Virus record (IMG/VR): IMGVR_UViG_3300017764_000033
Origin: a virus
DNA length: 34,147 nt
Strand: one strand, 5' to 3'
This document shows positions 1 through 32,195 of the stretch, piece after piece. The notes beneath the pieces are model-generated. The model worked only from the letters and a program-made list of their open reading frames with translations. It was not told the DNA's origin and did not search any database. The translations under genes and the position numbers were made by a program. Numbering within the stretch: the stretch's first letter is position 1; each line of letters opens with the position of its first letter.

Positions 1-123
1 ATTGAAATACAGCGTATCTCCATCTTGAAACACCTCAACCAATGACGTAGGGTCATTCGTATACCCAAAGTCAAGCCCGTAGCTTATCAGCTTGGCATGA
101 GGTGGCACTTTCATTATTGTGTC
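1..123. repeat. Terminal direct repeat, copy 1. It is identical to 34025..34147 and is most likely the assembly overlap of a circular or circularly permuted genome.
   Basis: Base-by-base comparison: attgaaatacagcgtatctcc...cattattgtgtc occurs at both window ends, 123/123 identical. The repeat lies inside the terL coding frame. Confidence 0.95.
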
Positions 124-774
124 GAATCTGAATATCACAGCTTTGTTCTGCGCTCTCTTACCTTCTCCGTATACACGCCAATACGTCTCATCAATATCCT
201 TGAGTCTCTCGATCTCAGCAACAAGGCTTTTGTCAAGGAACGGATTATCTCTATATGTCGTTATGTGGAAATCACAATCGTCCCTACCGACTACTTGATC
301 ATATAGCCAATGGAACTCGTCAGAAGGGTTGTAATCAACTATCACCCTCTCAATGGTACGGATGTTCAACTGAAAGAAATCCTCGTATCTAAGCTCATTA
401 CCTTCGTTTATGAATAACAGGTGTCTCTTACGACCTCTAATCTTCTGCGGCTCATCTAAACTCACGAACTCTACGAGATTACCATTCAGCCTGTACTCAT
501 TCGTACTCTTGCTGTGGTTTATCTCGCTATACATGTTGTACTTGTTCAGCAACTCAAAGAAATCCCTCATAGCTGATCCTCTTAACGAAGGGCCATGCTT
601 ACGACATATGGTAACGATCTTGTTGTTGTTGCTCATGCAATACTTGAAAATGATCCATATCAAGATATTGTACGTCTTACCCGAACGTGTACCTCCTTGC
701 TCCACAATGAACCTCTTATCACTAAGGTCAATATGATCAAAAACTACATTCGTTTGTAAAGCTATCTCAGCCAT
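1..774 (-). CDS. terL: Terminase large subunit, N-terminal ATPase part. The gene wraps the circular junction and continues at 33632..34147.
   Basis: Minus-strand frame is open from ATG 774..772 to the window edge (258 complete codons). It is absent from the ORF track because it runs off the edge. My translation is MAEIALQTNVVFDHIDLSDKRFIVEQGGTRSGKTYNIL... It has Walker A GGTRSGKT (673..696) and Walker-B-like HLLFINEG. It looks PBSX/XtmB-type (Terminase_3-like) by recall. The frame is continuous through the 123-nt overlap. Confidence 0.9.
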   Translation of the reverse strand, partial: MAEIALQTNVVFDHIDLSDKRFIVEQGGTRSGKTYNILIWIIFKYCMSNNNKIVTICRKHGPSLRGSAMRDFFELLNKYNMYSEINHSKSTNEYRLNGNLVEFVSLDEPQKIRGRKRHLLFINEGNELRYEDFFQLNIRTIERVIVDYNPSDEFHWLYDQVVGRDDCDFHITTYRDNPFLDKSLVAEIERLKDIDETYWRVYGEGKRAQNKAVIFRFDTIMKVPPHAKLISYGLDFGYTNDPTSLVEVFQDGDTLYFN

Positions 775-1136
775 TATTCTTCTTTACGCAATACCTCTAT
801 CTTAACATCAAGTCCCTTACCATCTGCACCTGTAATTTCAGTACGCTCTACATATCCTCTATGCTTACCCTTAGTCTTGAGCAAAAAGATCACTGAAGTC
901 GGATTCTTGTCATCCACTAATTCATACAGCTTACTCTCCGCAAAGTCCAATACAATGTTCTGCACCTCATCCATTGCATCTGAAAATTCGCTGTCCTCTT
1001 TAGCCCACCTGTATGGTGTCGTGCGATCTATGCCTATGCTCTTACAGGCTTGGCTCACAATACCCATCTTCTTTTCAAGAGCTTCTAAGAACTGCTCTTT
1101 TTTAAGGTGTTGTTTTTGTTGCTTCTTGTCGCTCAT
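774..1136 (-). CDS. terS: Terminase small subunit (HTH type)
   Basis: 120 aa with an N-terminal HTH (GIVSQACKSIGIDRTTPYRWAKED). It sits directly upstream of terL, and its TAA stop overlaps the terL ATG (TAATG at 772..776). Confidence 0.75.
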   Translation of the reverse strand: MSDKKQQKQHLKKEQFLEALEKKMGIVSQACKSIGIDRTTPYRWAKEDSEFSDAMDEVQNIVLDFAESKLYELVDDKNPTSVIFLLKTKGKHRGYVERTEITGADGKGLDVKIEVLRKEE

Positions 1137-1331
1137 CTAAAGGTCGTGTTCTATGTTCTTCCTCTCAATATACCTGCGCCACATATTGGCCGCCCAAGCC
1201 TTTCTCTGAATCTTGTTTGGGTACACCTTTCTTAGTCTCGCATTTGCTATGCGTAGGAACTGCTTCATCTTGTCAGTCATTGCAATCGTGTTTATCATTA
1301 TCATAGTAGGTGTGGCTATTGCAGTATTCAC
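1137..1331 (-). CDS. Hypothetical small basic protein
   Basis: 64-aa ORF that abuts the terS start (1136/1137). The true start may be the internal ATG at 1280 (MTDKMKQF...). Confidence 0.55.
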   Translation of the reverse strand: MNTAIATPTMIMINTIAMTDKMKQFLRIANARLRKVYPNKIQRKAWAANMWRRYIERKNIEHDL

Positions 1332-1358
1332 ATACCCAATACATGCCCTCTTCGTATC

Positions 1359-1877
1359 CTACTTCTTGCCTTGTTTGGGACTTCTCCATGCTTTGCTATA
1401 CTTATGCTCTTTGATATTCAACGCATCGAATACTCCATCCTTGTACAATAGGTCTATCTCATCTTTCGTACAACCTATGCCCTCCATAATCTGCTGTCTG
1501 CTGTAATCGTGATCATCAATAAGGCTCTTCACTATGTCATGCATCTTGATTGCCACGTGATTACCCTTAGCTCTATTGATCCTAATTGTCAATAGCATTC
1601 GTTCGGGTTCAGTCAGATCCATCATAACTACAGGACATTTACCATCGTACTTCTCCTGTAGCAGTTTGCTGTTCTTGCTCAAAAAACTCCTGTGATACCC
1701 ATCGATAATCATGAGGTTCTTGTCTACGAGTACAGGTTGTATCCACCCGTTCTTCATAATACTGAACTCAAGAAGTTTTAGTTCTTGGTTCAGCACTACG
1801 TTCGGATTGTACTCGTTAGCGTTTAGATCATGAGCGTTTACCCATTGCACTTGGCTGATCGGATCGTCTTTATACAT
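1359..1877 (-). CDS. ParB-like nuclease-domain protein (IbrB/DndB-like)
   Basis: 172 aa. N-terminal ParB-type domain: ...YNPNVVLNQELKLLEFSIMKNGWIQPVLVDKNLMIIDGYHRS, with a DGxHR motif. Its start overlaps the upstream gene's stop by 8 nt. Confidence 0.7.
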   Translation of the reverse strand: MYKDDPISQVQWVNAHDLNANEYNPNVVLNQELKLLEFSIMKNGWIQPVLVDKNLMIIDGYHRSFLSKNSKLLQEKYDGKCPVVMMDLTEPERMLLTIRINRAKGNHVAIKMHDIVKSLIDDHDYSRQQIMEGIGCTKDEIDLLYKDGVFDALNIKEHKYSKAWRSPKQGKK

Positions 1878-2268
1878 TGTGGTCTTTTCTTAGTATTGCA
1901 AAATCGTGTCGATATACAGGAGGCCATTGTCTGCCGTTTTGTACCTGTTGGAAATAGCCTTCTACGGCTTTGGGGTTTCTGCGTTTGCTGTGGTGCATCA
2001 TGTGGCATCTCCAACACAATGGTTCGAGTACGCTTTTGAGCTTTTCTATTTCATGGGGTTCGATGCTGATCGGGAATCGATTGAACACATCTTCTAACGT
2101 GTAAAATGTAACATCGTAGTCTTCATTATGCGTATGGATTATGCCTTCAGTCTGACCACACCTGTTGCATTGCTTTGGGTACTTGATCCAACCCATCTTT
2201 TGTGCGCGTTGCGTGTGCTTTAAGGATGCCTTACGGAATTCTGCTGACCACTTTTTGTAACTTTTCAT
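1870..2268 (-). CDS. HNH-type zinc-finger protein (putative endonuclease)
   Basis: 132 aa with the pattern CNRCG...IIHTHNEDYD...LCWRCHMMHH. That is a CxxC ... H/N core ... CxxCHxxxH arrangement, typical of HNH nucleases. Confidence 0.5.
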   Translation of the reverse strand: MKSYKKWSAEFRKASLKHTQRAQKMGWIKYPKQCNRCGQTEGIIHTHNEDYDVTFYTLEDVFNRFPISIEPHEIEKLKSVLEPLCWRCHMMHHSKRRNPKAVEGYFQQVQNGRQWPPVYRHDFAILRKDHNV

Positions 2269-2277
2269 GCTGTTTTA

Positions 2278-2306
2278 CTTTTTGATTATGGATTATACTT
2301 AACATA
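2278..2306 (-). promoter_or_regulatory. Internal promoter-like / leader element upstream of the HNH-like gene
   Basis: The minus strand reads TATGTTAAGTATAATCCATAATCAAAAAG. It shares the TTAAGTATAAT and AATCAAAAAG blocks with the intergenic promoter cassettes, and it overlaps the 3' end of the GNAT gene. Confidence 0.35.
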
Positions 2307-2732
2307 TGTGATGCCATTACGATTGACTCCCCTTTCCAAGAAGTTTTCTTTTAGGTATTTCGGTAGCGACATCTCAGTGCAGTAAGCCGATATCGTATGT
2401 ACATCATATTCCTTAAAGATAAGGTTTATTCTATAGTCCCAAAGTGCTGAATATAAACCTTTTCCACGAAAATTCTCTCTAACGTAGTCGGTCTTGAAAC
2501 GTATGTGCCCTTCTTTGATCTCTTGCCACCCTACTACTGCAACAGGATGGATTCCATTCATCACACAGGCATAATGTGTCTTTGGATCTTGTTTCTTAAT
2601 TGCTACTCGCTCCTTGACTAATTCTCTACGGAATCTCCCGTATACCTCATCATGATCTATTCGATATATCTTCATACTCATAGTATTTCTCGTGTCTATC
2701 AGGTGTCGGTACAATTGATCTCTTGTAACCAC
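2286..2732 (-). CDS. GNAT-family N-acetyltransferase-like protein
   Basis: Acetyl-CoA motif-A-like RGKGLYSAL, followed by a beta-strand-rich C-terminus. The start is probably the ATG at 2675 (MKIYRIDHDE...), which cuts the overlap with the upstream gene from 83 nt to 26 nt. Confidence 0.6.
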   Translation of the reverse strand: MVTRDQLYRHLIDTRNTMSMKIYRIDHDEVYGRFRRELVKERVAIKKQDPKTHYACVMNGIHPVAVVGWQEIKEGHIRFKTDYVRENFRGKGLYSALWDYRINLIFKEYDVHTISAYCTEMSLPKYLKENFLERGVNRNGITYVKYNP

Positions 2733-3777
2733 CGCCTATAATCTTGCCAAAAACGTACAATGCAGGGAATCCTGCTAACGGGTCATCGGGTTTTGCATTC
2801 TTGGCACGGCTCTTTCTCACCTGTGCTACTTTTTGCATGGCTTGGTTGTACTGATACTCATCCGTTATGTTCTCTTTTATGTACAGGTATATTGCTCCCC
2901 ACGCATCTCCTGCCTTCTCCTTGTACTCGTATGCAATCTTATCAGTCTTTCCCTTTACCATGTCCTTATAGTATCTCGCCTGTACGTCAACTTCGGGAAA
3001 TACCTCCATGATCTGATTGTACAACACAGGATCATTGGTCTTGAGCTTATGCAACTGCTTGGCCGCCTCTGCGTGAATAGCTGAAGCTACTCGTAACGGA
3101 TCTTTATTGAACACTTGGTTGTCATATACCTTGCAATACTCTATATCCTTATCGTAGAAATACTTGAACACGTCCTTCTCACTCCAATCGTACACAGGTT
3201 TGAACATAGATACGTTCTTGACAAGTGGACTCTTCGTTAGATATGGTATTGTACTTGCCGTGATTCCTTGAAATCTCAACAGGCTCTCTTGCGCTCGTAT
3301 TCCAATACACAATGCAATCCTCTTGCGCTTATTCTTAAAGAAGTATTTCTCAAATTCCTCTTGCTTCATCACACCCTTCATAGTCTCAGCTACATCGGGT
3401 TTCGGAACGATCCAATTACCCTTGCGTTTCTCGTCCCATTGAACGTACTTACGCTTCTCTCCCAATATGTAGATCTCAGATTGCAATGGCGTGGCCAAGT
3501 ACACAAAATTGTATCTCGGATCATCATATTGCGATAATACAAAATCACGTATTGCGCCATTTATGACCTCTTCATCTCTGAAGATTACGTTTATCTTGTC
3601 TTTGTATCCCTTCATGTCAAGGTACTCTTCCATCAGCTTTAAGCAGACCAGGCTATCCTTTCCTCCACTATAACTAACCCATACCTCATCATGTGAATTG
3701 TAAACCCTATCGATGCGATCTAATGCCGCTTCGTAGACGTTCCTATCCTCATATATCAGATCCTCTTTTCGTGCCAT
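2650..3777 (-). CDS. PP-loop ATP pyrophosphatase, PAPS-reductase-like (IbrA/DndC-like)
   Basis: 375 aa. The PP-loop SGGKDS is encoded at 3652..3669 (checked codon by codon). A long C-terminal extension follows, as in DUF3440-type PAPS-reductase-like proteins (recall). Confidence 0.8.
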   Translation of the reverse strand: MARKEDLIYEDRNVYEAALDRIDRVYNSHDEVWVSYSGGKDSLVCLKLMEEYLDMKGYKDKINVIFRDEEVINGAIRDFVLSQYDDPRYNFVYLATPLQSEIYILGEKRKYVQWDEKRKGNWIVPKPDVAETMKGVMKQEEFEKYFFKNKRKRIALCIGIRAQESLLRFQGITASTIPYLTKSPLVKNVSMFKPVYDWSEKDVFKYFYDKDIEYCKVYDNQVFNKDPLRVASAIHAEAAKQLHKLKTNDPVLYNQIMEVFPEVDVQARYYKDMVKGKTDKIAYEYKEKAGDAWGAIYLYIKENITDEYQYNQAMQKVAQVRKSRAKNAKPDDPLAGFPALYVFGKIIGGGYKRSIVPTPDRHEKYYEYEDISNRS

Positions 3778-4430
3778 TACTCCTCGTCTATGTCGTATTC
3801 AATGAACTTGAGTATCAATTCACTCTCCTTCATGTTGTTATCGTTATACACCTCAGCTACATACGCAAGAACACGTTGGCTCACATTGTCATAGTCCTCG
3901 AATTTGTTTTTCAACTTACGCAAGAAGGAGTACCATACATCCATCTGCGCTTCATTGGCAAAGTAGATCGTGTAGTCATTAAACTTCGTGGTATCTAATG
4001 CCTCATCCATTGTCTCATCATCACCCTCTACGTTGAACATACTCGGATCCATGTCGAGTGCCCATTCATCTAACTGATACGCATCGAACTGATTGGCCAA
4101 CATCTCCCAATCCCACTTACCATACGCAATGTTGTCTTTGACTATGAACTCTTGCTTCTGCTTCTCCGTGAGATCCAACACACGCATAACAGGTACACGC
4201 TCTAACCCTGCTTCGAGACAGGCACGATATCTCATGTTTCCCCCAAGAACAACCATATCTTCATCCACCACAATAGGGCGAATATCAAGCATCTTAGGAA
4301 ACTTCTTAATGCTTTGTACCAACTTGCGGAACTTAACGTCCTCAATGTATCTTGGATTGACATCATTCAGCTTTATGTCTTTTACCTCCATGTAGATCGG
4401 CTCATACCGACCTGTTTCTCTATTCTCCAT
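3777..4430 (-). CDS. ParB N-terminal-domain protein (stand-alone, no fused methyltransferase)
   Basis: 217 aa with ...KLNDVNPRYI...IRPIVVDEDMVVLGGNMRYRACLEAGLERVPV..., a classical ParB box (GxxRxxA). Its stop overlaps the downstream ATG (TAATG at 3775..3779). Confidence 0.75.
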   Translation of the reverse strand: MENRETGRYEPIYMEVKDIKLNDVNPRYIEDVKFRKLVQSIKKFPKMLDIRPIVVDEDMVVLGGNMRYRACLEAGLERVPVMRVLDLTEKQKQEFIVKDNIAYGKWDWEMLANQFDAYQLDEWALDMDPSMFNVEGDDETMDEALDTTKFNDYTIYFANEAQMDVWYSFLRKLKNKFEDYDNVSQRVLAYVAEVYNDNNMKESELILKFIEYDIDEE

Positions 4431-4878
4431 ACGTCTTGTACACTTCGTTTACGTCATCTATCATTTTTTGCCATTTAGCAGGTGTACACTTGCAAGGCGT
4501 ATACAACTCATGATTGAAAATCCTGCTGTGCATATGCGCCACCTTCTGAGCTTCTGCATTCGTCATAAACTCTACATCACCTGCTTGAAATCCTGTCCAC
4601 CAAGTGTGCTCTTCCTCAGACATACAATTTGGATCTGATCCTTTGAACGGAATCAAGCGATTCAGAAGCTCTTTACGCTCATCACACCCACAATCTTCTC
4701 CTGCTATAAACTTGACAACAGCTTTGATACCTGTGGCCTCAGTAACACGCTCCACCGCATCACCTAACCCTTTCATGGGCTTTTTCTTAGATGTTTTTTT
4801 CTTTCCTGTACTCATTATACTCTTTTTTACATTCGTCTTTAATCTGATTACGAGTCTTTGCAAGGGTATGCTGTACAC
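4420..4878 (-). CDS. Hypothetical Cys-rich protein downstream of the sigma factor
   Basis: ORF whose likely ATG is at 4815 (MSTGKKKTSKKK...). It has a Lys-rich N-terminus and cysteines at CGCDE, NC and CKC. It overlaps both neighbouring genes. Confidence 0.6.
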   Translation of the reverse strand: MYSIPLQRLVIRLKTNVKKSIMSTGKKKTSKKKPMKGLGDAVERVTEATGIKAVVKFIAGEDCGCDERKELLNRLIPFKGSDPNCMSEEEHTWWTGFQAGDVEFMTNAEAQKVAHMHSRIFNHELYTPCKCTPAKWQKMIDDVNEVYKTYGE

Positions 4879-5302
4879 TTCGTGCGCTGATCCTTGTCGC
4901 TTTGCTTAGACTCCGTATACTATGATTCTCATCTACATAGGTCTTTAGCAATTTGCTGTTATACCAATGCATATTACCCATCATGGTTTCCACTTTGCTC
5001 ATTAGCACCTCGAACTTCTCTTCCATTAGTTCTGAATTGGAATCTGCTGTATCGCTCTCCATGTACTCAACCGATCTTGGTTTTCTCCTGTACATTGAGT
5101 GCATATTACTCAATACCGCAAAAATATAGCCTTTGTTTAGCTTGTCGTTCTGATACAAACGATCAAGACTGCCTTCTTTCTCTTCGATTATTAGCAGTTT
5201 TAGATACATATCCTGTACAAGATCATCTACAAGGTGCGATGGGCATCCAACGTACTTTGCAATCTTAATCCATTCCTTGTGCAGTGCGAATATCTCTTCC
5301 AT
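4787..5302 (-). CDS. Sigma-70 family (ECF-like) RNA polymerase sigma factor
   Basis: 171 aa. Region-2-like VDDLVQDMYLKLL...YIFAVLSNMHSMYRRK. Region-4 HTH-like HSIRSLSKATRISARSVQHTLAKTRNQIK. Confidence 0.7.
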   Translation of the reverse strand: MEEIFALHKEWIKIAKYVGCPSHLVDDLVQDMYLKLLIIEEKEGSLDRLYQNDKLNKGYIFAVLSNMHSMYRRKPRSVEYMESDTADSNSELMEEKFEVLMSKVETMMGNMHWYNSKLLKTYVDENHSIRSLSKATRISARSVQHTLAKTRNQIKDECKKEYNEYRKEKNI

Positions 5303-5306
5303 TAGG

Positions 5307-5324
5307 TTTTTACAATATACAAAA
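5307..5324 (-). promoter_or_regulatory. Short-form promoter/operator element upstream of the sigma-factor gene
   Basis: The minus strand reads CTTTTGTATATTGTAAAA, 5 nt before the ATG at 5302. The same core, TTTGTAyATTGTAAAA, occurs at 11125..11143. Confidence 0.45.
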
Positions 5325-5338
5325 GTTTAGCATACTGC

Positions 5339-5692
5339 CTACTTTACTGCCAAGTAGTACCTAACACGTTCTTCAAAGTCCTCAAATGATCTTGATACAA
5401 TGTACTTATACCCTTGATCCACCACATGCTTCTCAAATCTGATCTGATTATCAGTTTGCTTTCCCTTGCCCCACTTCATCTCTATGCACAATCCGTGATA
5501 GTCTTTATTCGGAACCAACAGGATGAGATCTGACACTCCTGCAACTACACCTTCTGCTTTTAGCTTTCGTGCTGTTGCAATATGCCTCTTTCCACCATTG
5601 GGTACTGAAAACAACAAGTCCCCATATTCGGGGAACTCGTATCTAAACCATCTAACACACGCTACTTGTAGCTGACTCTCAAGGCTTTTCAT
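5339..5692 (-). CDS. VRR-NUC domain nuclease
   Basis: 117 aa. QVACVRWF..., PNGG, GVSDLILLVP and GLCIEMKWGKGK match the PD-(D/E)xK arrangement of VRR-NUC proteins. Confidence 0.7.
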   Translation of the reverse strand: MKSLESQLQVACVRWFRYEFPEYGDLLFSVPNGGKRHIATARKLKAEGVVAGVSDLILLVPNKDYHGLCIEMKWGKGKQTDNQIRFEKHVVDQGYKYIVSRSFEDFEERVRYYLAVK

Positions 5693-6005
5693 TTTTAATA
5701 TGACTTATGTAATTCTCTTGCCATCGTTCTGCGGCTCTTTGCCTCTTGGCGTACTTCTCTCCTCTTAATTCCTCATTGACCTCTTGTAGCTTTCTTCTGA
5801 TCCGTGTAATCGTATCGGGTGTACTCAATGTACCATCTACATACAAATTCATCAACGTACCTGCTCCAATGCGTGAGTAGTCTAATCCTATCTCCTTCAA
5901 TTCCTGTGCCCAAACAACACAGGTAAGTCTTGCATCATTATCACGCAAGTGAACTGCTTTTGTCAAGACGTGCTCAACACGATCTCTTAGCTTATTCTTT
6001 TTCAT
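5679..6005 (-). CDS. Hypothetical protein
   Basis: 108-aa ORF that overlaps both neighbouring genes. No motif recognised. Confidence 0.6.
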   Translation of the reverse strand: MKKNKLRDRVEHVLTKAVHLRDNDARLTCVVWAQELKEIGLDYSRIGAGTLMNLYVDGTLSTPDTITRIRRKLQEVNEELRGEKYAKRQRAAERWQENYISHIKNEKP

Positions 6006-6193
6006 ATAAACATATGTTCATCTCCCATAGCCGACATGACTAATAGGACATAATTCTCATCCACAAGATCCTCTCTATCCAACAGGATTCTCGTACATGA
6101 CGAGCATACCTCGCTCTCCATCTTCCACTCAGTTAACGTGAAACTTGTATCACATCTTCTACATTGCTCTCTCATGCTGTTTGTTTTTGCCAT
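6002..6193 (-). CDS. Small zinc-ribbon-like protein
   Basis: 63 aa with CRRC...CSSC (two CxxC pairs). ATGA-type overlap with the downstream gene. Confidence 0.55.
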   Translation of the reverse strand: MAKTNSMREQCRRCDTSFTLTEWKMESEVCSSCTRILLDREDLVDENYVLLVMSAMGDEHMFI

Positions 6194-6366
6194 TCATTAA
6201 ACTCAGTTTGGCATCCTTCATAGTAACCTGCCCATTCTCGACACCGACCACATATTCCTATGTTGTCATTCTCATAGTGCAAATCCCATCCACAACATTC
6301 ACTACCCATATCATATAGATACTCTTGGTACTGATCATGATCCTTAAAGTTTTGGCTTCCATCCAT
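6172..6366 (-). CDS. Small Cys-rich protein
   Basis: 64 aa with CCGW...CGRC...C. It overlaps both neighbouring genes. Confidence 0.5.
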   Translation of the reverse strand: MDGSQNFKDHDQYQEYLYDMGSECCGWDLHYENDNIGICGRCREWAGYYEGCQTEFNEWQKQTA

Positions 6367-7033
6367 CTTCTATCCGCTTTTCAATTAAAAATGCTGTTAC
6401 TAATGCACGTTCGTAGTCATAATTACGATCCTTGCCTTGAAATGATCTGAAGGTCTTTGCATGAAAATCACTTCTTGACTTGACCTCCTCGTGTATATGT
6501 CTTGTCTTGCGCTCTGCATATCTCTTCAATTTTCCTATGATATAATCACGCTTCTCTTCGGTTATCTCTTGAGGACTAACGTATCCTTTCTCTACAACAT
6601 AACCCTGTAATGCTTCCAACTGCACAATGGTCATTCTGAATTTCGGATCTTCTCCAATTATATCTCTATAATAATCCTCTGCCGCATATACTAATGCCTT
6701 ACGATTACCTTCCTCCTGTTTTTGCTTACTTGCCTCTACCTCAGCTACACTGACCACCTTTGCCTCGTAATACCGATTCTTTGATGTCTTCATGTGCGTG
6801 TTCAGTATCCTACTTACGTTCATTGCGTTTACCTCACGGCTCTTAAGGTCAAGTGATCCTTCGCAATACCAATCAAAAGCCTCTCTTAACAGGACTGCAT
6901 AGTAGTTAGCATACTTCTTCTTAATCCAATGTGCTGTAAGTGGCGGATCATCGGGTAATTTCATGCCTGTCAATGAGGCAAGTCGCATCAGCTCTTCGCC
7001 TATCTCGGTCTTGGTCATGTCAGATATCTTCAT
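6344..7033 (-). CDS. Hypothetical protein in the replication-region context
   Basis: 229-aa ORF preceded by a promoter-like element. No motif recognised. Confidence 0.65.
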   Translation of the reverse strand: MKISDMTKTEIGEELMRLASLTGMKLPDDPPLTAHWIKKKYANYYAVLLREAFDWYCEGSLDLKSREVNAMNVSRILNTHMKTSKNRYYEAKVVSVAEVEASKQKQEEGNRKALVYAAEDYYRDIIGEDPKFRMTIVQLEALQGYVVEKGYVSPQEITEEKRDYIIGKLKRYAERKTRHIHEEVKSRSDFHAKTFRSFQGKDRNYDYERALVTAFLIEKRIEDGWKPKL

Positions 7034-7044
7034 GTTCAGTGCTT

Positions 7045-7060
7045 TTTGTAAATATACAAA
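7045..7060 (-). promoter_or_regulatory. Short-form promoter/operator palindrome TTTGTATATTTACAAA
   Basis: A perfect 16-nt palindrome, 11 nt upstream of the ATG at 7033. An identical 16-mer occurs at 20167..20183. Confidence 0.5.
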
Positions 7061-7066
7061 TAAAAT

Positions 7067-7735
7067 TTATTCCCACGAAACGTCATCTGAAATATCGCTA
7101 CCATATGGCAGTTCACCTTCCCATCTACGTTGGTTTAAATACGTTGTTAGGTAGGGCAGGTAGGGCATCTTCTTGTGCTTCTCGTGATGGGCTATATACA
7201 ATGGTACATTTACCTGCACTAAGCGTTGTTCTCCAATACTGAGCCTCCTGTATGCAGTATATGCTGTTTTCTTGACTCCCTTCTTCCTGTAGCTGATCCA
7301 TAATTCTTCAAAATCAAGTGAGTATACACTATTATTTTTACTATCTATTTTACTTATATCTTTAGAAGTATCTCCTCCGTGTATTTGGGCGGTAGGGTGT
7401 ACGTTAGATTGACGTGTACCCTCATCGTATTCTTGACGAGGAGGCTGTCCGTAGAACGGGCTATTCTGCACATAGATCCTGCGCTCTATAACCTGCTTAC
7501 CTTCGTATATCAATTCTCTTCTGATTACTTCCGCTCTCTCAAGTACAACAAGATCTCTTTCGAGGCTCTTAGCACTGCACCTGTTCATGAGTATCAATGT
7601 GCTGTTCTTAGCATAGCAGTAGCCTTTCTTAACGCTTAAACTATTCATGAGGCCTATGAGGGTACATTGCCTGTGGTTGAACCTGTCAAGGTAGGTCAAT
7701 GGATATAGTACGAAATAATTTGCTTCTTGATTCAT
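7067..7735 (-). CDS. Putative replication initiator / replisome organiser (winged-helix N-terminus)
   Basis: 222 aa. The N-terminus is wHTH-like (CTLIGLMNSLSVKKGYCYAKNSTLILMNRCSAKSLERDLVVLERAEVI). The C-terminus has FEELWISYRKKGVKKTAYTAYRRL, which resembles the F..FW..YP.K motif of phage DnaD-like initiators (recall). Confidence 0.45.
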   Translation of the reverse strand: MNQEANYFVLYPLTYLDRFNHRQCTLIGLMNSLSVKKGYCYAKNSTLILMNRCSAKSLERDLVVLERAEVIRRELIYEGKQVIERRIYVQNSPFYGQPPRQEYDEGTRQSNVHPTAQIHGGDTSKDISKIDSKNNSVYSLDFEELWISYRKKGVKKTAYTAYRRLSIGEQRLVQVNVPLYIAHHEKHKKMPYLPYLTTYLNQRRWEGELPYGSDISDDVSWE

Positions 7736-7773
7736 TATGTCTATCTTTACGATTCCGATGCTTCCACATCGGT

Positions 7774-7789
7774 GCTTTTTGATTATACT
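7774..7789 (-). promoter_or_regulatory. AGTATAATCAAAAAGC leader / -7-like block upstream of the initiator-like gene
   Basis: Same block as at 32142..32156, 32940..32955 and other sites. A 6-bp leader hairpin follows (CCGATG-N6-CATCGG, 7755..7772). Confidence 0.4.
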
Positions 7790-7793
7790 GAAA

Positions 7794-7812
7794 GAGGGGC
7801 TGTGCGCCCCTC
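7794..7812 (-). terminator. GC-rich hairpin after the SSB-like gene (weak T-tract)
   Basis: Minus strand GAGGGGC-GCACA-GCCCCTC, followed only by TTTC. Confidence 0.4.
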
Positions 7813-7829
7813 TCTCTTTTTACAATATA

Positions 7830-8309
7830 TTAAAACGGCAAGTCGTTCGCAACCGCAGGTGGCTTTGTTTCTACCACAGGTGGTAAAGCCTTCTCTTCAG
7901 TTTCTCGGAGTACCCATTTTTCAAGATCCTCCGCTACTGCTTTCATGTCTCCAATCATAACGTGTCCTGCTACTACAAGATCAGTTGCTCTTTGTAAGAC
8001 ATTCATGCGGACTATGCGCCCTTCAGTCTTAGGATCTTTGCCCTTGTATCCACCTCCACCATTAGATCCGTTAAAAGGCATTGCAGGAGGTTTAACGCTA
8101 TAGAACGTCTGCCCGTTGTATTCACGGCTTGTTCTTGTATACGATGCCTCTACACCTGTAACGAATTTTGTCTGATCGGGACTTTTACTATTGTAGTCTC
8201 CATACTCTCCGTTATCGAAGTGTACCTCGAACTTGTACATTGTCCCATACTTGCTGTCCCACGTTCCGTTAGGAGTTACGCTTTTTACAACTGCTTTACT
8301 TTCTTCCAT
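7830..8309 (-). CDS. Putative ssDNA-binding protein with an SSB-type acidic C-terminal tip
   Basis: 159 aa. Beta-rich N-terminal half, Gly-rich linker (NGSNGGGGYKG), Pro-rich tail ending ...ANDLPF. Compare the bacterial SSB C-terminal D-D-D-I-P-F tip. Confidence 0.45.
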   Translation of the reverse strand: MEESKAVVKSVTPNGTWDSKYGTMYKFEVHFDNGEYGDYNSKSPDQTKFVTGVEASYTRTSREYNGQTFYSVKPPAMPFNGSNGGGGYKGKDPKTEGRIVRMNVLQRATDLVVAGHVMIGDMKAVAEDLEKWVLRETEEKALPPVVETKPPAVANDLPF

Positions 8310-8844: not shown

Positions 8845-8875
8845 TAAAGGTAATGGTTCTTTGTGATATTACAAA
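8845..8875 (-). promoter_or_regulatory. Bacteroidota-type promoter: TTTG-N19-TACCTTTA
   Basis: The minus strand reads TTTG TAATATCACAAAGAACCAT TACCTTTA, then GTATATCAAAAAGC, and the ATG at 8823 follows 8 nt later. The -33 box lies inside the imperfect palindrome TTTGTAATATCACAAA. Confidence 0.6.
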
Positions 8876-12986: not shown

Positions 12987-13169
12987 TTAGCTTTTGTGGT
13001 ACATTACGAAGATCTTGTAATCTCCTGCATCCAATGTTTGTATTTTTGCTTCAGCATTAGCTATATCTGCGTAGCTCGTTACGTCAGTATCCCCAACGTA
13101 TTGCCTCCATTCCGTTCCGTGTAGCACTTGTGCGTTTGCTGTATCCTCGATGTAGTACTTCTTGTCCAT
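12987..13169 (-). CDS. Hypothetical small protein
   Basis: 60-aa ORF. Its ATG overlaps the fibre gene's stop (TAATG). Confidence 0.5.
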   Translation of the reverse strand: MDKKYYIEDTANAQVLHGTEWRQYVGDTDVTSYADIANAEAKIQTLDAGDYKIFVMYHKS

Positions 13170-14242
13170 TACGATAGTCTTATAATTTGAATAGCACCTA
13201 CATCACCTCCTGTACTCGTTACCTTGTGGTTCGCTACTCCCGAATGCAGGAATGTCTCTACCTCAATGTAATTACCATTTGATGCAGAAACTACAAACGA
13301 TGCGCTCGTAGTAGATTTGTGCCCGTAAGTGCTATGTCTAAAGTATTGTAGGTTACATGATCCCGCTATTGTAGTCCCGTTCTTCTGCACTACCGCTCCA
13401 AACGTAGATCGGTTAGCGTACAATGACTGCCAATTTATGTTGTACATAATCATGTAAGTCCCTGTAGCGTTAAACGTGATCCTGCTACTCGATATCGTTG
13501 TGCCTGTCGTGCCATCTAACTCTTGTGTTCCAATACTGATCTTAGCACCACTTGAGGTGTACGTTTGACTTGAAGTGAATAGATACTTGTCAGCCGTGTA
13601 CATAGCTCCGTTTGAACCATTCGAGCCGTTTGTCCCGTTCGTCCCGTTTGAACCTGCTGGGCCTTGAGGCCCTTCTACACCTTGATCACCTTGAGGCCCT
13701 TGAATTCCTTGTGGCCCCGTAGCACCATTTGAACCATCAGCACCATCACTTCCATCACTTCCTGCAATCCCCTGTGGCCCTTGAGGGCCTGTAGCTCCCG
13801 CCGCTCCCGCAGGGCCTTGAGGGCCCGTTGCTCCCGCTGAACCTGCCGCACCCGCAGAGCCTCTTACATTTCCTACATTAACCTCACCGAGATTATCAAT
13901 CTCTAAGACTAACTCATAGTTTTGCAAAGAAGCACCTGTTACTGAATTACCATCAGCACCTGCCGATCCATTAGAACCATTCGAACCCGCGGGGCCTTGT
14001 GGGCCTTGTGGGCCTGTAGGGCCTGTACTTGTAGGCAGGGTTACTGATCCACCACTATTGGATAACGTAAGCGTAGTACCACTAACGCTCAATGCTTGAG
14101 TATACGTTCCGCTTAGATCGGGTATACGAGCGGAACTAAATGTCCCACTCGTAATTTTTGCGGCTGACAGGTTCGGTACATCACTTGAAGCAATGTTCAT
14201 CGAACCCGTTACATCTAATGCGCCTAAAACCTTTACAGCCAT
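13169..14242 (-). CDS. Collagen-like tail fibre with a C1q/TNF-like C-terminal head
   Basis: 357 aa. Two Gly-X-Y blocks (aa 74-99 and 128-212). The C-terminal 145 aa have jelly-roll-like signatures (ITFNATGTYMIMYNINW...VVQKNGTTIAGS...SASFVVSASNGNYIEVE). The N-terminus, MAVKVLGALDVTGS, resembles that of the neighbouring fibre. Confidence 0.8.
   Translation of the reverse strand: MAVKVLGALDVTGSMNIASSDVPNLSAAKITSGTFSSARIPDLSGTYTQALSVSGTTLTLSNSGGSVTLPTSTGPTGPQGPQGPAGSNGSNGSAGADGNSVTGASLQNYELVLEIDNLGEVNVGNVRGSAGAAGSAGATGPQGPAGAAGATGPQGPQGIAGSDGSDGADGSNGATGPQGIQGPQGDQGVEGPQGPAGSNGTNGTNGSNGSNGAMYTADKYLFTSSQTYTSSGAKISIGTQELDGTTGTTISSSRITFNATGTYMIMYNINWQSLYANRSTFGAVVQKNGTTIAGSCNLQYFRHSTYGHKSTTSASFVVSASNGNYIEVETFLHSGVANHKVTSTGGDVGAIQIIRLS
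13607..13861 (-). repeat. Coding Gly-X-Y collagen repeat block 2 (85 aa)
   Basis: GSAGAAGSAGATGPQGPAGAAGATGPQGPQGIAGSDGSDGADGSNGATGPQGIQGPQGDQGVEGPQGPAGSNGTNGTNGSNGSNG. Coordinates were computed from aa positions. Confidence 0.9.
13946..14023 (-). repeat. Coding Gly-X-Y collagen repeat block 1 (26 aa)
   Basis: GPTGPQGPQGPAGSNGSNGSAGADGN. A 28-aa non-collagen interruption separates it from block 2. Confidence 0.85.
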
Positions 14243-17361: not shown

Positions 17362-19146
17362 TTAGTTCAATTTTGCTTGATCGGGCATATCAGTAGGACG
17401 TTGTTGAGCCTCTTTCCACTTTTTAGGTTCAAATTTCGTATTAGGCACTCCTGCTCTTCTTGCACCGCTTTCAGCTATTCTCTTATCGTTTTCTAAATCC
17501 TTAGTAGACGATGCAGGTTTGATCCTACCCTTACCATCTCTTGCACGAACAAATACTTGTCTCACCCAATAGTGTTTGCAGTAAGCACCACCTTTAAATC
17601 GCCATATACTATATGTGCTTGTGCCTTTTGGACTCCATTCAGTGTTCACTTTACCTGCCATATTCTCAATATCCTCTCTGCGGTACACTACCCCTCTTTC
17701 TCCGTTCTGAACCATGTTCTTGCAGAACGTTCTGCTGTTATCAGAAGCCTTGAGTGGTGCATAACGATAACGGATCTTGTATATTCCTGCATCATCGTCA
17801 GACTTAGCTTGAGGATTTGCAAATCGCTTGAAGAAGTTATACTTCTCGTCCTCCGTGTCGGGGTCAACTTCCTCTTCATCCATCAATTCCCATTCTTCGA
17901 GATCCATTTGTTCGCCAATTTCACTCAAATGTTCAAGCCAATGAGATTCGTCCTCATCAGTCATATCCTGTAATGCCTTATTCTTAGCATCACCTTGCTC
18001 ACTTAGCTCTACACCTGTTTCTTTCTCTCTTGTCTCATCGTCAAGCATCTTACCACTAAGATCCACGAATTCAAGGGGCTGTAATGTCTTGAAATACAAG
18101 TCTAACGAGTACCCATTGTAGTGCAATACATCCTTAACAGCCTCTATAATAGCGTTTTGCATAGGTCTGATCACCGTATTGTCGAATAACACACTCGCTG
18201 TTCTTAGCTCATCTGCATTATTACCTAATCCTGTCTGATCCTTTATACCTAATAGCATAGGACTCGTTACCCTATGGCTCACCATGATCTTAGACATACA
18301 CTCATTGCTCAAAAAGCTGTACTGATTGTGCGCATCACTTAGCTGAATAGGCTCGATGGATGCTTGGCTGTCCTTATCATCATTAAAGGCTAAAATGAAG
18401 CGACCTGCATTGCTTGATCCACTAAATTTCTGCTTCAGTTTACTCTCTATCTGCTGTTGCTTACGCTCATCGGGAATCCCATTATTGAAATTCACCATCA
18501 TCGTAGGCAAAAGCGAATTTTTAATGTTGTTCAAGTGATAGTTCGCTATCTCACTCTCCATCTCAGCATACTGCAAACCACCTTGATAGTCCACAGGATT
18601 AAAGTAATCGTTACCTGTGCTGTACGGCTTTATAACGTACATAGCAACCATTGCATTGCCCTCATATCCGAAAGCAGGTATCCTTGTAGGCGTATCACTT
18701 GGCGTTGCCTCTGCCCAATTGTGGTGGTAGTAGTAAGCCTCTACCTCTCCCTTGTCGTTGGCCTTTTCGGGACGTAATGTGTAGATCGGGAAATGCTCTG
18801 CCTGTACAAAACGCTTTCCATCCTTACTCTTTATGACTTGAAACGATGCCTGTCCAAGCATCTTGAAGTCCATACACAATTTGCGTACACAATCATCTCT
18901 AAACAGCTTCTTGAAGCTCAAGTAACCATCCAATTGACGATCCGCTTTGACTACCTCTAACCCTCCACCAAAGATCAAGTCAGAAATACCCTTAACTGCC
19001 GCATTGTTCGTAGGACTGCTGTGGTACAATGAGATCAGATACTCATAAAACGAGTTATCGTCTCCGTATTCGATCCAATCCTTGTTCTTGCTCTCTACTA
19101 TAGCAGGGCTATTGTAGTCATGCAGTTGCACAAACCTTACACTCAT
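17362..19146 (-). CDS. Portal protein with a long C-terminal extension
   Basis: 594 aa. It is the largest head-module ORF. The N-terminal ~370 aa look portal-like (...SPTNNAAVKGISDLIFGGGLEV...), followed by a very acidic linker and then a basic Cys/His-containing domain. Confidence 0.65.
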   Translation of the reverse strand: MSVRFVQLHDYNSPAIVESKNKDWIEYGDDNSFYEYLISLYHSSPTNNAAVKGISDLIFGGGLEVVKADRQLDGYLSFKKLFRDDCVRKLCMDFKMLGQASFQVIKSKDGKRFVQAEHFPIYTLRPEKANDKGEVEAYYYHHNWAEATPSDTPTRIPAFGYEGNAMVAMYVIKPYSTGNDYFNPVDYQGGLQYAEMESEIANYHLNNIKNSLLPTMMVNFNNGIPDERKQQQIESKLKQKFSGSSNAGRFILAFNDDKDSQASIEPIQLSDAHNQYSFLSNECMSKIMVSHRVTSPMLLGIKDQTGLGNNADELRTASVLFDNTVIRPMQNAIIEAVKDVLHYNGYSLDLYFKTLQPLEFVDLSGKMLDDETREKETGVELSEQGDAKNKALQDMTDEDESHWLEHLSEIGEQMDLEEWELMDEEEVDPDTEDEKYNFFKRFANPQAKSDDDAGIYKIRYRYAPLKASDNSRTFCKNMVQNGERGVVYRREDIENMAGKVNTEWSPKGTSTYSIWRFKGGAYCKHYWVRQVFVRARDGKGRIKPASSTKDLENDKRIAESGARRAGVPNTKFEPKKWKEAQQRPTDMPDQAKLN

Positions 19147-19478
19147 AATGTCATAAATTTATTTTCGTATCCCATGTTCTCGGTGTACTTGTCTTTGATC
19201 ACGCTGAAGCTCTTAGCCTCTTGTGCTGTACAAAATACCTTACCTCTATACACAGGTATACCATCACTATCCTTTAGCACGATCCGATACCACTGCTCTT
19301 CTTGAAAGTTAAACGCAAACCCTACTTGTCGATAGCTATTACTAATCGTAATGCTACACGCAGGTTTGTATGTCTCTTTGCTGTAATCATCCCGTACCTG
19401 TAAGGTCAAATCACCCGTATAACTACGAGTGGCTACCTTAATTACGTGATCGGTTGTATTCGGACTAACTATTGTCAT
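19143..19478 (-). CDS. Hypothetical protein upstream of the portal
   Basis: ATG at 19478 (MTIVSPN...); the track start at 19493 is TTG. ATGA overlap with the portal start. Confidence 0.6.
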   Translation of the reverse strand: MTIVSPNTTDHVIKVATRSYTGDLTLQVRDDYSKETYKPACSITISNSYRQVGFAFNFQEEQWYRIVLKDSDGIPVYRGKVFCTAQEAKSFSVIKDKYTENMGYENKFMTL

Positions 19479-19512
19479 ACCTATATAATGCAAAACCTCT
19501 ATTTCAATACAT

Positions 19513-19541
19513 AAAAAAAGGGCAGACCTTTCGATCCACCC
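19513..19541 (-). terminator. Rho-independent terminator
   Basis: Minus strand GGGTGGA-TCGAAAGG-TCTGCCC (7 bp, including two G:U pairs), followed by T7. Confidence 0.6.
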
Positions 19542-19568
19542 TCTTCCGCTACAATAAATCGTTATACC

Positions 19569-19895
19569 CTATCGCGTATAAAAATCGCTTACCTTGACAT
19601 ACTGCAAATCAATCTCAATGTCGTTTGCTTTAGCGTATACGTCAACATATTCCTCTCCTTGTGTACTTATGAGCAATCCATTACCAAAGAACGGCACTCC
19701 GTTTACCTTGAAGCCAAATCCGTAGTTCTTAAACAAGCCTTCTTCATCTACAATGAGGTCTATATCATCTCTGAATCGTACAGGTTGAAAATACTCAGCC
19801 TTTTGGTGCAAGGCTTTCGATATGTCTTGCCATTCATCACCTATCTCGATGTCGTACATACCCTTGTTCTCAGCATCTATCTTAATTACTCTCAT
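19569..19895 (-). CDS. Hypothetical protein (possibly DUF3846-like)
   Basis: 108 aa. ...DLIVDEEGLFKNY...GNGLLI... resembles DUF3846-type small proteins (recall only). Confidence 0.55.
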   Translation of the reverse strand: MRVIKIDAENKGMYDIEIGDEWQDISKALHQKAEYFQPVRFRDDIDLIVDEEGLFKNYGFGFKVNGVPFFGNGLLISTQGEEYVDVYAKANDIEIDLQYVKVSDFYTR

Positions 19896-20146
19896 TTTGT
19901 TACTGATTTGCGGTTAAACGGATCGAGATTCTTATCGAATAAGACGTCTGCGAGGGCCTTAGTGTTCATGAAATACTGATCGTATCCATATGTGTCATTG
20001 AATAGGCGATAGTACACTACATGCTTCTTATCGTCCATTGGGTTGCCGAGCGAATACTGCTGTAGGCTGTAATGATTGCTGTTATCACGTTGGTCGCTTT
20101 CTAAGTCCCAACACGTCCAAGCGTTTACGAGTTTCCTGTTCTCCAT
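19892..20146 (-). CDS. Hypothetical small protein
   Basis: 84-aa ORF with its own promoter-like element. ATGA overlap with the next gene. Confidence 0.6.
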   Translation of the reverse strand: MENRKLVNAWTCWDLESDQRDNSNHYSLQQYSLGNPMDDKKHVVYYRLFNDTYGYDQYFMNTKALADVLFDKNLDPFNRKSVTK

Positions 20147-20166
20147 TTGATATTGCTTTTTGATTC

Positions 20167-20211: not shown

Positions 20212-20219
20212 ATCTATTC

Positions 20220-32187: not shown

Positions 32188-32195
32188 ATGTACAT

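Follow-up and report, generated by a model that had tools for sequence, protein, structure and literature searches.

The five back-to-back minus-strand genes that lie directly upstream of terS/terL in the ORF list of this sequence are the marine-phage version of a widespread, biochemically uncharacterised phage module. The comparison of loci showed that its core is a triad, made of a PAPS-family PP-loop enzyme, its obligate IbrB/YbdM-type partner (ParB2) and a second ParB-N protein (ParB1), and that a transferase and a Zn protein form a mobile two-gene sub-module added to the triad. On its role, the idea of the first-pass annotation, a DNA-modification or counter-defence system, is in our assessment still the best reading: with a probability of roughly 0.4, this would be an ATP-dependent, ParB-assisted module of the IbrA/IbrB type that acts on DNA, for modification or counter-defence.

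The window, that is the whole sequence analysed (34,147 nt), is a complete, circularly permuted phage genome of ~34 kb, whose host is probably a marine Bacteroidota. Its first 123 nt are identical to its last 123 nt, and thus terL wraps over the sequence ends: on the basis of the translation and of the 123-nt terminal overlap, it runs on the minus strand from 774 and wraps to 33632-34147, and on the source contig it has Terminase_3, 6N and 3C Pfam matches. The terS gene (774-1136, minus), assigned from PHROG terS families, is also outside the module. Between ParB2 and terS there is an unassigned minus-strand ORF of 64 aa (1137-1331), which is also among the genes predicted on the source contigs and for which Pfam and PHROG searches returned no family match.

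Direct reading of the sequence confirmed the five minus-strand genes with the coordinates and junctions first proposed, and the motifs quoted for their products (LGGNMRYRA, SGGKDS, RGKGLYSAL, CNRC...HTHNEDY...CWRCHMMHH and DGYHR) were all found in the translations. The ORFs of ParB1 (3777-4430, 217 aa) and of the PAPS-like enzyme (2650-3777, 375 aa) share a 1-nt stop/start overlap in the TAATG at 3775-3779. The PAPS-like ORF overlaps the GNAT-like one by 26, 32 or 83 nt, according to the chosen start: the latter is open to a GTG at 2732 (2286-2732, 148 aa), while the gene callers on the source contigs start it at the ATG at 2681 (2286-2681, 131 aa). A 17-nt gap (2269-2285) separates it from the ORF of the Zn protein (1870-2268, 132 aa), which overlaps ParB2 (1359-1877, 172 aa) by 8 nt, ATGTATAA, at 1870-1877. 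As each of the five ORFs has many homologues and conserved synteny, they are not chance ORFs. On the upstream side of ParB1, a Cys-rich ORF overlaps it by 11 nt and also overlaps an ECF-type sigma gene. Of the operon proposed from the sigma gene to the terminase, the overlaps are present here, but the sigma linkage is not kept in the relatives, where ~2.8 kb of other genes separates ParB1 from the sigma gene and the Cys-rich ORF. This adjacency is local to the present phage only.

The gene neighbourhoods of 80 PAPS-centred viral loci were compared, 48 of which were informative (2.5 kb or more on each side). Among these 48, ParB2 was present in 44 and ParB1 in 37; these and the other locus counts include many close relatives, and thus they do not represent independent events. 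The order ParB1–PAPS–ParB2 was found in most of the 80 loci and also in cultured phages of Mycobacterium, Arthrobacter and Bacillus, and the module with its Zn protein is present in Bacillus phage PBC5, Rhizobium phage L338C and Mycobacterium prophi79-1. This repeated co-occurrence supports the functional linkage suggested for the five genes. The duplicated ParB, taken at first as an oddity, is instead usual in PAPS-centred loci.

The PAPS-like protein matches PF01507 (1.9e-12) and, over its full length, phrog_2302 (4.9e-84), which upholds its placement in the PP-loop PAPS-reductase family. E. coli YbdN matches the same phrog_2302 (1.2e-76), and hhalign between the two proteins gave a probability of 99.8% over residues 3-299. 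The SGGKDS PP-loop motif (residues 37-42; 3652-3669, minus) is invariant in 52 and 15 homologues, and D68, E70, E164, S165, R168, D197 and W198 are also invariant in the homologue alignments; no invariant Cys was found among the 52 and 15 aligned homologues. The sequence search returned no PDB relative, and the C-terminal third has no Pfam DUF3440 match. Judging from these profiles, the protein is a predicted PAPS-reductase-family PP-loop ATP pyrophosphatase of the YbdN/IbrA kind.

Against the NCBIfam models, the protein scores 34 bits for DndC (cut-off 290) and 14-22 bits for CysH, APS-reductase and CysD (cut-offs 154-235). With these sub-threshold scores and no invariant Cys, the identification as a DndC orthologue or as a sulfate-assimilation PAPS reductase was rejected. 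For the same reasons, classic phosphorothioation or sulfate reduction, the DndC/CysH-type sulfur chemistry first considered, is not supported. Furthermore, profile searches recognised no DndA-, DndD- or DndE-like genes in the phage genome, which, together with the missing Cys, makes phosphorothioation unlikely. The JGI label of the protein is predicted PAPS sulfurtransferase. Several phage papers have adopted the reading of an auxiliary metabolic gene, i.e., a true PAPS reductase that raises host sulfur assimilation, and both the Pfam PAPS_reduct match and the PHROG category of the family ("auxiliary metabolic gene") agree with it. It is hardly credible here, considering the CysH, APS-reductase and CysD scores, the lack of an invariant Cys as catalytic thiol, and the flanks of the gene, which in the PAPS-centred loci are almost always ParB-like and never sulfur-pathway genes.

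ParB2 matches phrog_2159 (2.1e-63), as E. coli YbdM does (4.3e-69), and the two proteins share 36% identity across the full length (E 3e-30), including the C-terminal YS+AW motif. The identity with the ParB2 of Bacillus phage PBC5 is 61%, the motifs NxYNPN, DGYHR, RINRAKGxH and YSKAW are near-invariant, and no match to DndB models was obtained. By sequence, ParB2 is an IbrB/YbdM-type protein of the ParB/Srx fold. The PAPS-like protein and ParB2 thus correspond to the YbdN/YbdM (IbrA/IbrB) pair, and the first-pass annotation overstated the novelty when it found no matching system. ParB1 passes the cut-off of Pfam ParB_N (2.5e-6) and matches phrog_498 (ParB-MTase, 1.4e-24) and phrog_620 (2.4e-24), so that profile matches bear out the presence of two ParB-N proteins. 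It has a GxxR box (LGGNMRYRA) and a D99-N100 box, with G64, R67 and N100 kept across 48 homologues, which points to a canonical-looking, stand-alone ParB N-terminal-domain protein. The same type also occurs fused to phage DNA methyltransferases (phrog_498; PADLOC MTase_II).

The family identity with YbdN/YbdM and IbrA/IbrB could also indicate a regulator, in which the ParB-like proteins would bind DNA of the phage or the host and, together with the PP-loop enzyme, turn on late or packaging genes in an IbrA/IbrB-like way. Coherently, homologues in phage records are annotated "co-activator of prophage gene expression", in the present phage the module is flanked by the ECF-type sigma gene and terS/terL, and many phages keep late-transcription activators just upstream of terS. 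We consider this unlikely, since an invariant PP-loop ATP site, an additional ParB, a transferase and a protein resembling a nuclease would be superfluous in a regulator. In addition, the sigma-gene adjacency is not conserved, only 17/48 informative PAPS-centred loci have a terminase gene no more than 3.5 kb away, and the IbrAB effect itself could stem from DNA modification.

The Zn protein has seven invariant residues, C34, C37, H47, C85, C88, H89 and H93 (Cys4/His3), and its AF2 model (pLDDT 94) places β44-48, β81-85 and α86-93. Foldseek found no significant PDB fold match, Pfam gave no family and no HNH match, and the HNH matches in BFVD were weak; the prophi79-1 homologue is annotated as HNH endonuclease, and a DUF2779 fusion occurs in one member of the family. 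The protein is probably a divergent HNH (His-Me finger). Of the HNH zinc finger proposed earlier, the motif and the predicted ββα core stand, but Pfam and PDB do not back them; as only the C..C/H/C..CH...H motif and this core support HNH, the assignment is weaker than earlier stated. PAPS, ParB1 and ParB2 were present in 27/27 informative Zn-centred loci, across at least eight gene orders and with identities as low as 25%, and terL in 19/27; the locus of Rhizobium phage L338C is among the 27. The Zn protein is thus a dedicated accessory of the module, which is a new observation.

In the present phage and in its closest relatives terS/terL directly adjoin the module downstream, and the prophi79-1 homologue of the Zn gene adjoins a terminase gene. 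HNH–terminase co-operation is established in HK97-like phages, and HNH genes adjoin the terminase in cos phages. The HNH-like protein and the ParB-like "nucleases" could therefore help the terminase to cut or recognise concatemeric DNA. This appears very unlikely: the Zn gene travels with the PAPS, ParB and transferase genes rather than with the terminase, it accompanies PAPS even where the locus is rearranged, and it is mid-genome in Rhizobium phage L338C. Moreover, most ParB1–PAPS–ParB2 triads have no Zn protein, and the PP-loop ATPase and the GNAT would be left without a function.

The AF2 model of the GNAT-like protein (pLDDT 93.7) had 565 Foldseek matches in PDB at E<=1e-3, the best being the GNAT 5jph (TM 0.78), and PF13673 was matched by 16/18 family members, with the present phage's protein narrowly under the Pfam cut-off. 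The GNAT fold is thus upheld, and the product is a predicted small GNAT-fold transferase; the analogy drawn with phage Mu Mom fails on sequence comparison. The tblastn search with the GNAT against 50,697 phage records gave zero matches, and the GNAT form of the module is absent from the cultured phages of this collection. The transferase is directly upstream of the Zn gene in 55/58 GNAT loci and 9/12 methyltransferase loci, and none of the loci compared has both. This slot holds either the GNAT or one methyltransferase family, never both, which is also a new observation. In sister modules it is taken by the phrog_11826 methyltransferase, and the absence of a methyltransferase, noted before as a peculiarity, loses its weight.

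The nearest relatives of the transferases leave room for a doubtful alternative, host takeover, in which the PP-loop enzyme would adenylylate a non-DNA target or yield an adenylylated metabolite and the GNAT or methyltransferase would modify a host protein, tRNA or polyamine amine. Indeed, the phrog_11826 methyltransferases have PrmA and protein arginine methyltransferases as their closest relatives and match tRNA methyltransferases weakly, and the structures nearest to the GNAT are protein, N-terminal and polyamine acetyltransferases. The ParB/Srx fold also includes non-DNA enzymes, such as sulfiredoxin. However, two ParB-N proteins, one of the DNA methyltransferase-fused type, and an HNH-like protein indicate nucleic acid, and the methyltransferase similarities span little beyond the SAM-binding motif.

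In the preferred reading, an IbrA/IbrB-type module that acts on DNA, the target would be double-stranded DNA after replication, with transcription shared with the packaging genes. No DNA polymerase, nucleotide-modifying enzyme or further methyltransferase was recognised in the rest of the genome, and for this reason any modification would be post-replicative. ParB1 may be a DNA-engaging or loading factor, given that ParB domains are fused to phage DNA methyltransferases and that ParB activators serve thymine dioxygenases and DpdA. The PP-loop enzyme would spend ATP to adenylylate, and so activate, a group on DNA, and ParB2 would be the partner that binds the nucleotide; the HNH-like protein may recognise, nick or open DNA for the transferase, which would add or cap a group (an acyl group in this phage, a methyl group in the sister modules). 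The chemistry need not involve sulfur. If this is true, the phage would evade host restriction or modification-sensing defence. Against a DNA target, the accessory transferases (GNAT, PrmA-like methyltransferases) look less like DNA enzymes than like enzymes that act on proteins or small molecules, the CoA-binding motif A of the GNAT is degenerate, and the HNH assignment is not firm in statistical terms.

Among known systems, ParB N-domains without ParA or parS occur in ParB-dependent modifiers: a ParB activator partners the DNA-modifying thymine dioxygenases of phages (PMC13229309), DpdB is the ParB-type partner of the DNA-modifying DpdA (PMC12839542), and in ParB-methyltransferase fusions the ParB domain resembles ParB1 by profile match. 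Here the catalytic partner is instead a PP-loop enzyme, a pairing for which we found no characterised example in the literature. The Dnd system (DndB/DndC; also SspD and BrxP) joins, as here, a DGxHR ParB-superfamily protein to a PAPS-reductase-family PP-loop pyrophosphatase, and the PAPS-like protein has weak DndC and BrxP profile matches; unlike Dnd, it has no conserved cysteines that could serve an Fe-S cluster or a persulfide relay. Anti-Dnd activity has been described for a Vibrio phage PAPS-domain::Dam fusion together with one further gene (Piel et al. 2022; bioRxiv 10.1101/2021.05.05.442762). This fusion joins a PAPS-reductase-family domain to a transferase and has a counter-defence phenotype, a likeness at the family level; its transferase is a Dam DNA methyltransferase with no ParB partners reported, whereas the present modules have a GNAT or a PrmA-like methyltransferase.

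The closest kin are E. coli YbdN/YbdM and IbrA/IbrB, in which a ParB-like protein partners a PAPS reductase/DUF3440 protein, and, as in that pair, the phage PAPS and ParB2 genes adjoin each other with translational coupling in most loci. The phage module adds ParB1, and here the GNAT and Zn genes sit between the two core genes. Family membership gives no mechanism, as we found no biochemical function reported in the literature; the only phenotype reported for the family, by Sandt et al., is co-activation of prophage eib expression, and we know of no experiment showing a DNA substrate for any member of this family. The ParB–PAPS reductase–(methyltransferase)–ParB arrangement recurs in Bacillus phages PBC5 and 031MP004, Arthrobacter phage Salgado, cluster B mycobacteriophages, M. 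abscessus prophi79-1, and Flavobacterium and Streptococcus phages. These cultured-phage modules share the three core families and their order with the present phage, often near the terminase or the genome end, and carry the phrog_11826 methyltransferase or no transferase in place of the GNAT; those of PBC5 and prophi79-1 share the Zn protein with the present phage.

The five open reading frames of the cassette were confirmed at the coordinates claimed by the first-pass annotation, all on the minus strand, as are all the genes of the window. They encode a ParB-like protein (ParB1, 3777-4430, 217 aa), a PAPS reductase-like PP-loop protein (2650-3777, 375 aa), a GNAT-like protein (2286-2681, open to 2732), a Cys/His-rich protein proposed to be an HNH-type zinc finger (1870-2268, hereafter the Zn protein) and a second ParB-like protein (ParB2, 1359-1877, 172 aa). 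The quoted junctions were all correct, namely the TAATG at 3775-3779, the SGGKDS motif at 3652-3669, the 17-nt gap at 2269-2285 and the 8-nt overlap at 1870-1877; the overlap between the PAPS-like and GNAT-like genes spans 26-83 nt, depending on the start chosen, and gene callers take a 131-aa GNAT from position 2681.

The PAPS-like protein matches PF01507 (1.9e-12) and, over its full length, phrog_2302 (4.9e-84), a group that the Escherichia coli K-12 protein YbdN (“putative PAPS reductase/DUF3440 protein”) also matches full length. The hhalign comparison between the PAPS family and YbdN gave a probability of 99.8% over ~300 residues, reaching YbdN residue 318 of 406, and no match to Pfam DUF3440 was found in the window protein. 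Similarly, ParB2 matches phrog_2159 (2e-63), as does E. coli YbdM, to which it is 36% identical end to end (E 3e-30), while its identity to the counterpart in Bacillus phage PBC5 is 61%. On the basis of the shared PHROGs and of these alignments, the PAPS-like protein and ParB2 are, at the sequence level, the YbdN/YbdM pair, which phage records name IbrA/IbrB or “co-activator of prophage gene expression.” ParB1 scores above the Pfam ParB_N threshold and keeps the GxxR box and the D-N box. Among PHROGs, it is matched best by the ParB domain found in ParB-methyltransferase fusions and by a ParB-like family, and this kinship accounts for the match of the PADLOC type II methyltransferase model to ParB1. 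The two ParB proteins share 24% identity over 98 residues and are no more than distant paralogues. Sequence searches of the PDB with the PAPS-like protein, ParB1, and ParB2 gave marginal matches only. A scan of IMG/VR with the single PAPS-like sequence returned nothing, and homologues there were gathered by alignment-based scans instead; each of the top 120 PAPS homologues consists of a single domain.

Annotations routinely mistake the module for a sulfur-metabolism gene or a partition protein. The SGGKDS motif of the PP-loop is intact in the PAPS-like protein and invariant among its homologues (sets of 52 and 15), and the E-S..R motif is also invariant in the family. Both motifs speak for an active enzyme, predicted to be an ATP α-phosphate transferase or pyrophosphatase. 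In the same two sets, none of the cysteines is invariant, C215 being kept in only ~90% of the homologues. The identification as a CysH PAPS/APS reductase was rejected: the CysH, APS-, and PAPS-reductase models score 14-17 bits vs cut-offs of 154-235, and there is no invariant Cys. Judging from these features, the protein is not a sulfate-assimilation PAPS reductase, and a role of the module in sulfur metabolism, despite the annotations that point to it, is extremely unlikely.

The likeness to DndC drawn in the first-pass annotation failed on score, cysteines, and partners alike, and the protein is not a DndC orthologue. The TIGR03183 model gives 34 bits vs a cut-off of 290.4, the cysteine dyad and the Fe-S ligands are missing, and PADLOC DndC models match the PAPS-like protein at just 5e-10, in two short stretches. 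Scanning 40 ORFs of the window, many of which remain unassigned, turned up no recognisable DndA (cysteine desulfurase), DndD (SMC-like ATPase), or DndE; the scan used PHROGs and/or Pfam for most ORFs, and NCBIfam and PADLOC for 7 of the 10 ORFs in and around the cassette. A host IscS could stand in for a phage DndA. A ParABS partition system was also rejected, since only ParB N-domains match, with no helix-turn-helix or dimerisation domains, and the genome showed no recognisable ParA. A search of the window for parS-like repeats found only promoter-like repeat families and no other repeated palindrome family.

The GNAT-like protein alone falls just under the Pfam cut-off, and 16 of 18 family members match PF13673. 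Its AlphaFold2 model (pLDDT 93.7) retrieved 565 PDB matches at E ≤ 1e-3 with Foldseek, the top ones all being GNATs (E 7.6e-9, TM 0.78), so that the modelled product of 2286-2681 has a GNAT fold. The predicted CoA-binding motif A (Q/R-x-x-G-x-G/A) is degenerate: the family keeps R72 and G73 without exception, and has mostly K at position four and always Y at position six. The suggested analogy with the Mom protein of phage Mu did not hold beyond the fold, the only thing in common, as hhalign of the GNAT family against Mom gave a probability of 1.4%.

The Zn protein has no Pfam or PHROG family, and a Pfam scan of 18 family members likewise gave no family, one of the 18 matching PF01844 at 0.046. 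Its invariant residues are C34, C37, H47, C85, C88, H89, and H93, and the canonical HNH Asn position is not conserved. The AlphaFold2 model (pLDDT 94) shows a core of β44-48, β81-85, and α86-93 with CxxC/CxxC, plus a two-helix insertion. Foldseek against the PDB was not significant (best E 2.4), the best matches being HNH domains, and against BFVD it returned two family members followed by many weak HNH endonucleases (E 0.05-1). Distant homologues are labelled HNH endonuclease or weakly match an endonuclease PHROG. The protein is probably a divergent HNH-type His-Me finger without the canonical Asn. Among the original domain calls, then, both ParBs, the PP-loop and the GNAT fold were right, while the HNH call is soft. 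The Zn family is large, with 3074 cluster representatives (50% identity, E ≤ 1e-3), and the single informative fusion among its long members is to DUF2779 (a 732-aa protein, entry P0116). Three metagenome-assembled contigs (L155, L156, and L160, one of them Methanoregula) carry a Zn gene with neither PAPS nor ParB closer than 7 kb.

To define which genes belong together, we annotated 57 viral loci sampled via the Zn family, using profiles grown from the window proteins, and 80 loci sampled via the PAPS family. Among the Zn-centred loci flanked on each side by 2.5 kb or more, PAPS, ParB1, and ParB2 lie beside the Zn gene in 27/27. This linkage persists down to 25% identity and across many rearranged gene orders, a variety that shows rearrangement to have occurred repeatedly and independently; many sampled loci are closely related, and the counts, those for the transferases included, are therefore not independent. 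The Zn-centred loci include Rhizobium phage L338C, and the same Zn-bearing module is present in Bacillus phage PBC5 and in a Mycobacterium abscessus prophage, both fetched separately. Seen from the PAPS gene, ParB2 is present in 44 and ParB1 in 37 of the 48 informative loci, whereas the Zn gene (11/48), the GNAT (7/48), and a methyltransferase (7/48) are much less frequent. The core of the module is the PAPS/ParB1/ParB2 triad. The “duplicated ParB,” taken as a peculiarity of this phage, is the module's normal state. Annotated cultured phages have the same ParB–PAPS–(methyltransferase)–ParB order.

Of the 58 loci with a GNAT, 55 have it as the gene immediately upstream of Zn; the methyltransferase takes this position in 9 of its 12 loci. 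The transferase/Zn pair shifts as one unit relative to PAPS and ParB2. GNAT and methyltransferase occur together in no locus sampled. The module methyltransferases (loci L001, L002, L003, L066, L072, and L144, from Bacillus, Arthrobacter, Mycobacterium, and metagenomic phages) all belong to phrog_11826, a family related most closely to PrmA and protein arginine methyltransferases rather than to DNA methyltransferases. Searches of Pfam, PHROGs, and the PDB led us to reject a Dam-like (or Dcm) assignment for them in favour of a class I PrmA/PRMT-like family. Action on a target other than DNA is, in our view, unlikely, even if the transferases resemble protein or small-molecule enzymes more, a point against DNA modification; on the other side stand the two ParB-fold partners and the HNH-like protein.

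Of 50,697 deposited phage records, 227 contain a ParB2 homologue and 143 a PAPS homologue, and none has the GNAT form of the module. The module spans phages of Actinomycetota, Bacillota, Bacteroidota, and Pseudomonadota. A scan of genome contigs found only 8 loci; these are mostly viral-looking metagenome-assembled contigs, so prophages gave no host assignment.

Nine copies of the Bacteroidota promoter motif TTTG-N17-22-TAnnTTTR are present in the genome, where 1.4 would be expected, and none of 100 shuffles reaches 9. Seven copies are on the coding (minus) strand, at 2414-2443, 8845-8875, 20171-20202, 20613-20643, 32157-32187, 32957-32987, and 33600-33630, and sit within longer repeat families. 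Since no copy is found between ~7045 and 2443, the genes for the VRR-NUC nuclease, the sigma factor, the Cys-rich ORF, ParB1, PAPS, and GNAT look like a single transcription unit. The copy at 2414-2443, inside the GNAT gene, resembled an internal promoter for Zn and ParB2 but is not relied on, as the motif recurs there in only 2 other lineages among 47 loci. A scan of 600-6200 for sigma-70-type promoters and terminators gave nothing above shuffles.

Upstream of ParB1 lie an ECF-type sigma factor (TIGR02937, 6e-7; GFO_1088-type model, 1e-5) and an overlapping Cys-rich ORF (phrog_32048), together spanning 4420-5302. Relatives retain both side by side, the Cys-rich portion being divided there between two ORFs, and the two may form a sigma/anti-sigma-like pair. 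The coupling of this pair to the cassette, put forward in the first-pass annotation, is real in the window, where it adjoins ParB1, but is peculiar to this phage, as in relatives it lies ~2.8 kb upstream. A regulatory role of the module, to which the “co-activator” names in phage records and the activation of prophage eib genes reported for IbrA/IbrB would correspond, appears improbable. Just upstream of the sigma gene is the VRR-NUC nuclease gene (5339-5692; PF08774, 7e-7; phrog_824, 3e-45); a VRR-NUC gene near the module is also seen in a few distant loci (L047, L078, L137, and L158).

The first 123 nt of the window are identical to positions 34025-34147, indicating that the phage genome (~34,024 bp) is complete and either circularly closed or permuted. 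Downstream of the cassette there are a 64-aa ORF, terS and terL; terL (388 aa, minus strand) starts at 774 and continues across the window ends at 33632-34147. The distance from the module to a terminase gene is 3.5 kb or less in 19/27 Zn-centred and 17/48 PAPS-centred loci, and help in packaging is a very unlikely function for the module. The phage probably infects a marine Bacteroidota bacterium, as suggested by the kinship of terL (nearest to Flavobacterium psychrophilum phage terminases, 39%), the Bacteroidota ECF-type model matched by the sigma factor, and the promoter motif. A nucleotide search with window positions 1-8000 had no match among the 50,697 phage records; the contig is also present in seawater metagenomes (JGI 3300017724). 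Between terL and the portal gene (17362-19146) there are ~14 kb (19146-33632), which is unusual in a head module, with large ORFs of 724, 595, and 377 aa that have no Pfam family and match PHROGs of unknown function only. A tail-fibre gene (13169-14242) contains collagen-like, 9-nt periodic repeats coding for Gly-X-Y (13733-14036, repeat families D1 and D8), with matches to collagen-like tail-fibre PHROGs; the G+C of this segment (0.45-0.48) is the genome maximum.

We propose, with a probability of roughly 40%, that the module serves DNA-directed modification or counter-defence. DNA is suggested as the substrate by the two ParB-fold partners, one of them of the methyltransferase-fused type, by the HNH-like protein, and by cases of ParB-like partners. 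DndB is the ParB-like partner of DndC. Among published cases, a ParB-like protein is a required partner of phage thymine dioxygenases (PMC13229309), and the ParB-like DpdB of the DNA-modifying DpdA (PMC12839542). Moreover, a Vibrio phage fusion of a PAPS domain to Dam, with one neighbouring gene, allows escape from Dnd (bioRxiv 10.1101/2021.05.05.442762; cited in PMC13551039), which ties phage PAPS-family domains, of this or another subfamily, to counter-defence. In the proposed order of events, the ParB proteins would engage DNA, the PP-loop enzyme would adenylylate a DNA group, and the transferase/HNH-like pair would then complete or vary the mark.

A more specific and rather doubtful form of this proposal is a new post-replicative DNA (hyper)modification route. 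The YbdN/IbrA-type PP-loop enzyme, loaded on double-stranded DNA by its two ParB-fold partners, would adenylylate a base or backbone position, and the swappable transferase/HNH-like pair would finish the adduct. Finishing by a GNAT or by a dedicated methyltransferase could yield acylated or methylated variants in different phages. Against DNA modification weighs, besides the soft HNH call, that no member of the PAPS-like/YbdN family has a demonstrated substrate; we found no biochemical paper on either YbdN/YbdM or IbrA/IbrB. If DNA modification were true, it would be a new phage counter-defence route, and many “auxiliary metabolic gene” claims would be corrected; the hypermodification route would also give a function to E. 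coli YbdN/YbdM and to IbrA/IbrB. If the module does not modify DNA, the cassette is just one ordinary example of a module that is catalogued already. The triad core, the Zn accessory, and the mutually exclusive GNAT and methyltransferase offer handles toward the substrate and, with them, a testable lead into a long-standing annotation puzzle.

Compared with known systems, the view that this arrangement matches nothing characterised has to be revised: the ParB–PAPS–ParB module is widespread in phages, with relatives in E. coli K-12 (ybdNM), and is of the common, catalogued, and biochemically uncharacterised YbdN/YbdM-IbrA/IbrB kind. On present evidence, it is not a categorically new system. What is new with respect to the catalogued module is its GNAT-bearing variant, the Zn/HNH-like protein as a module-specific accessory, and the alternation of GNAT and methyltransferase in one slot.
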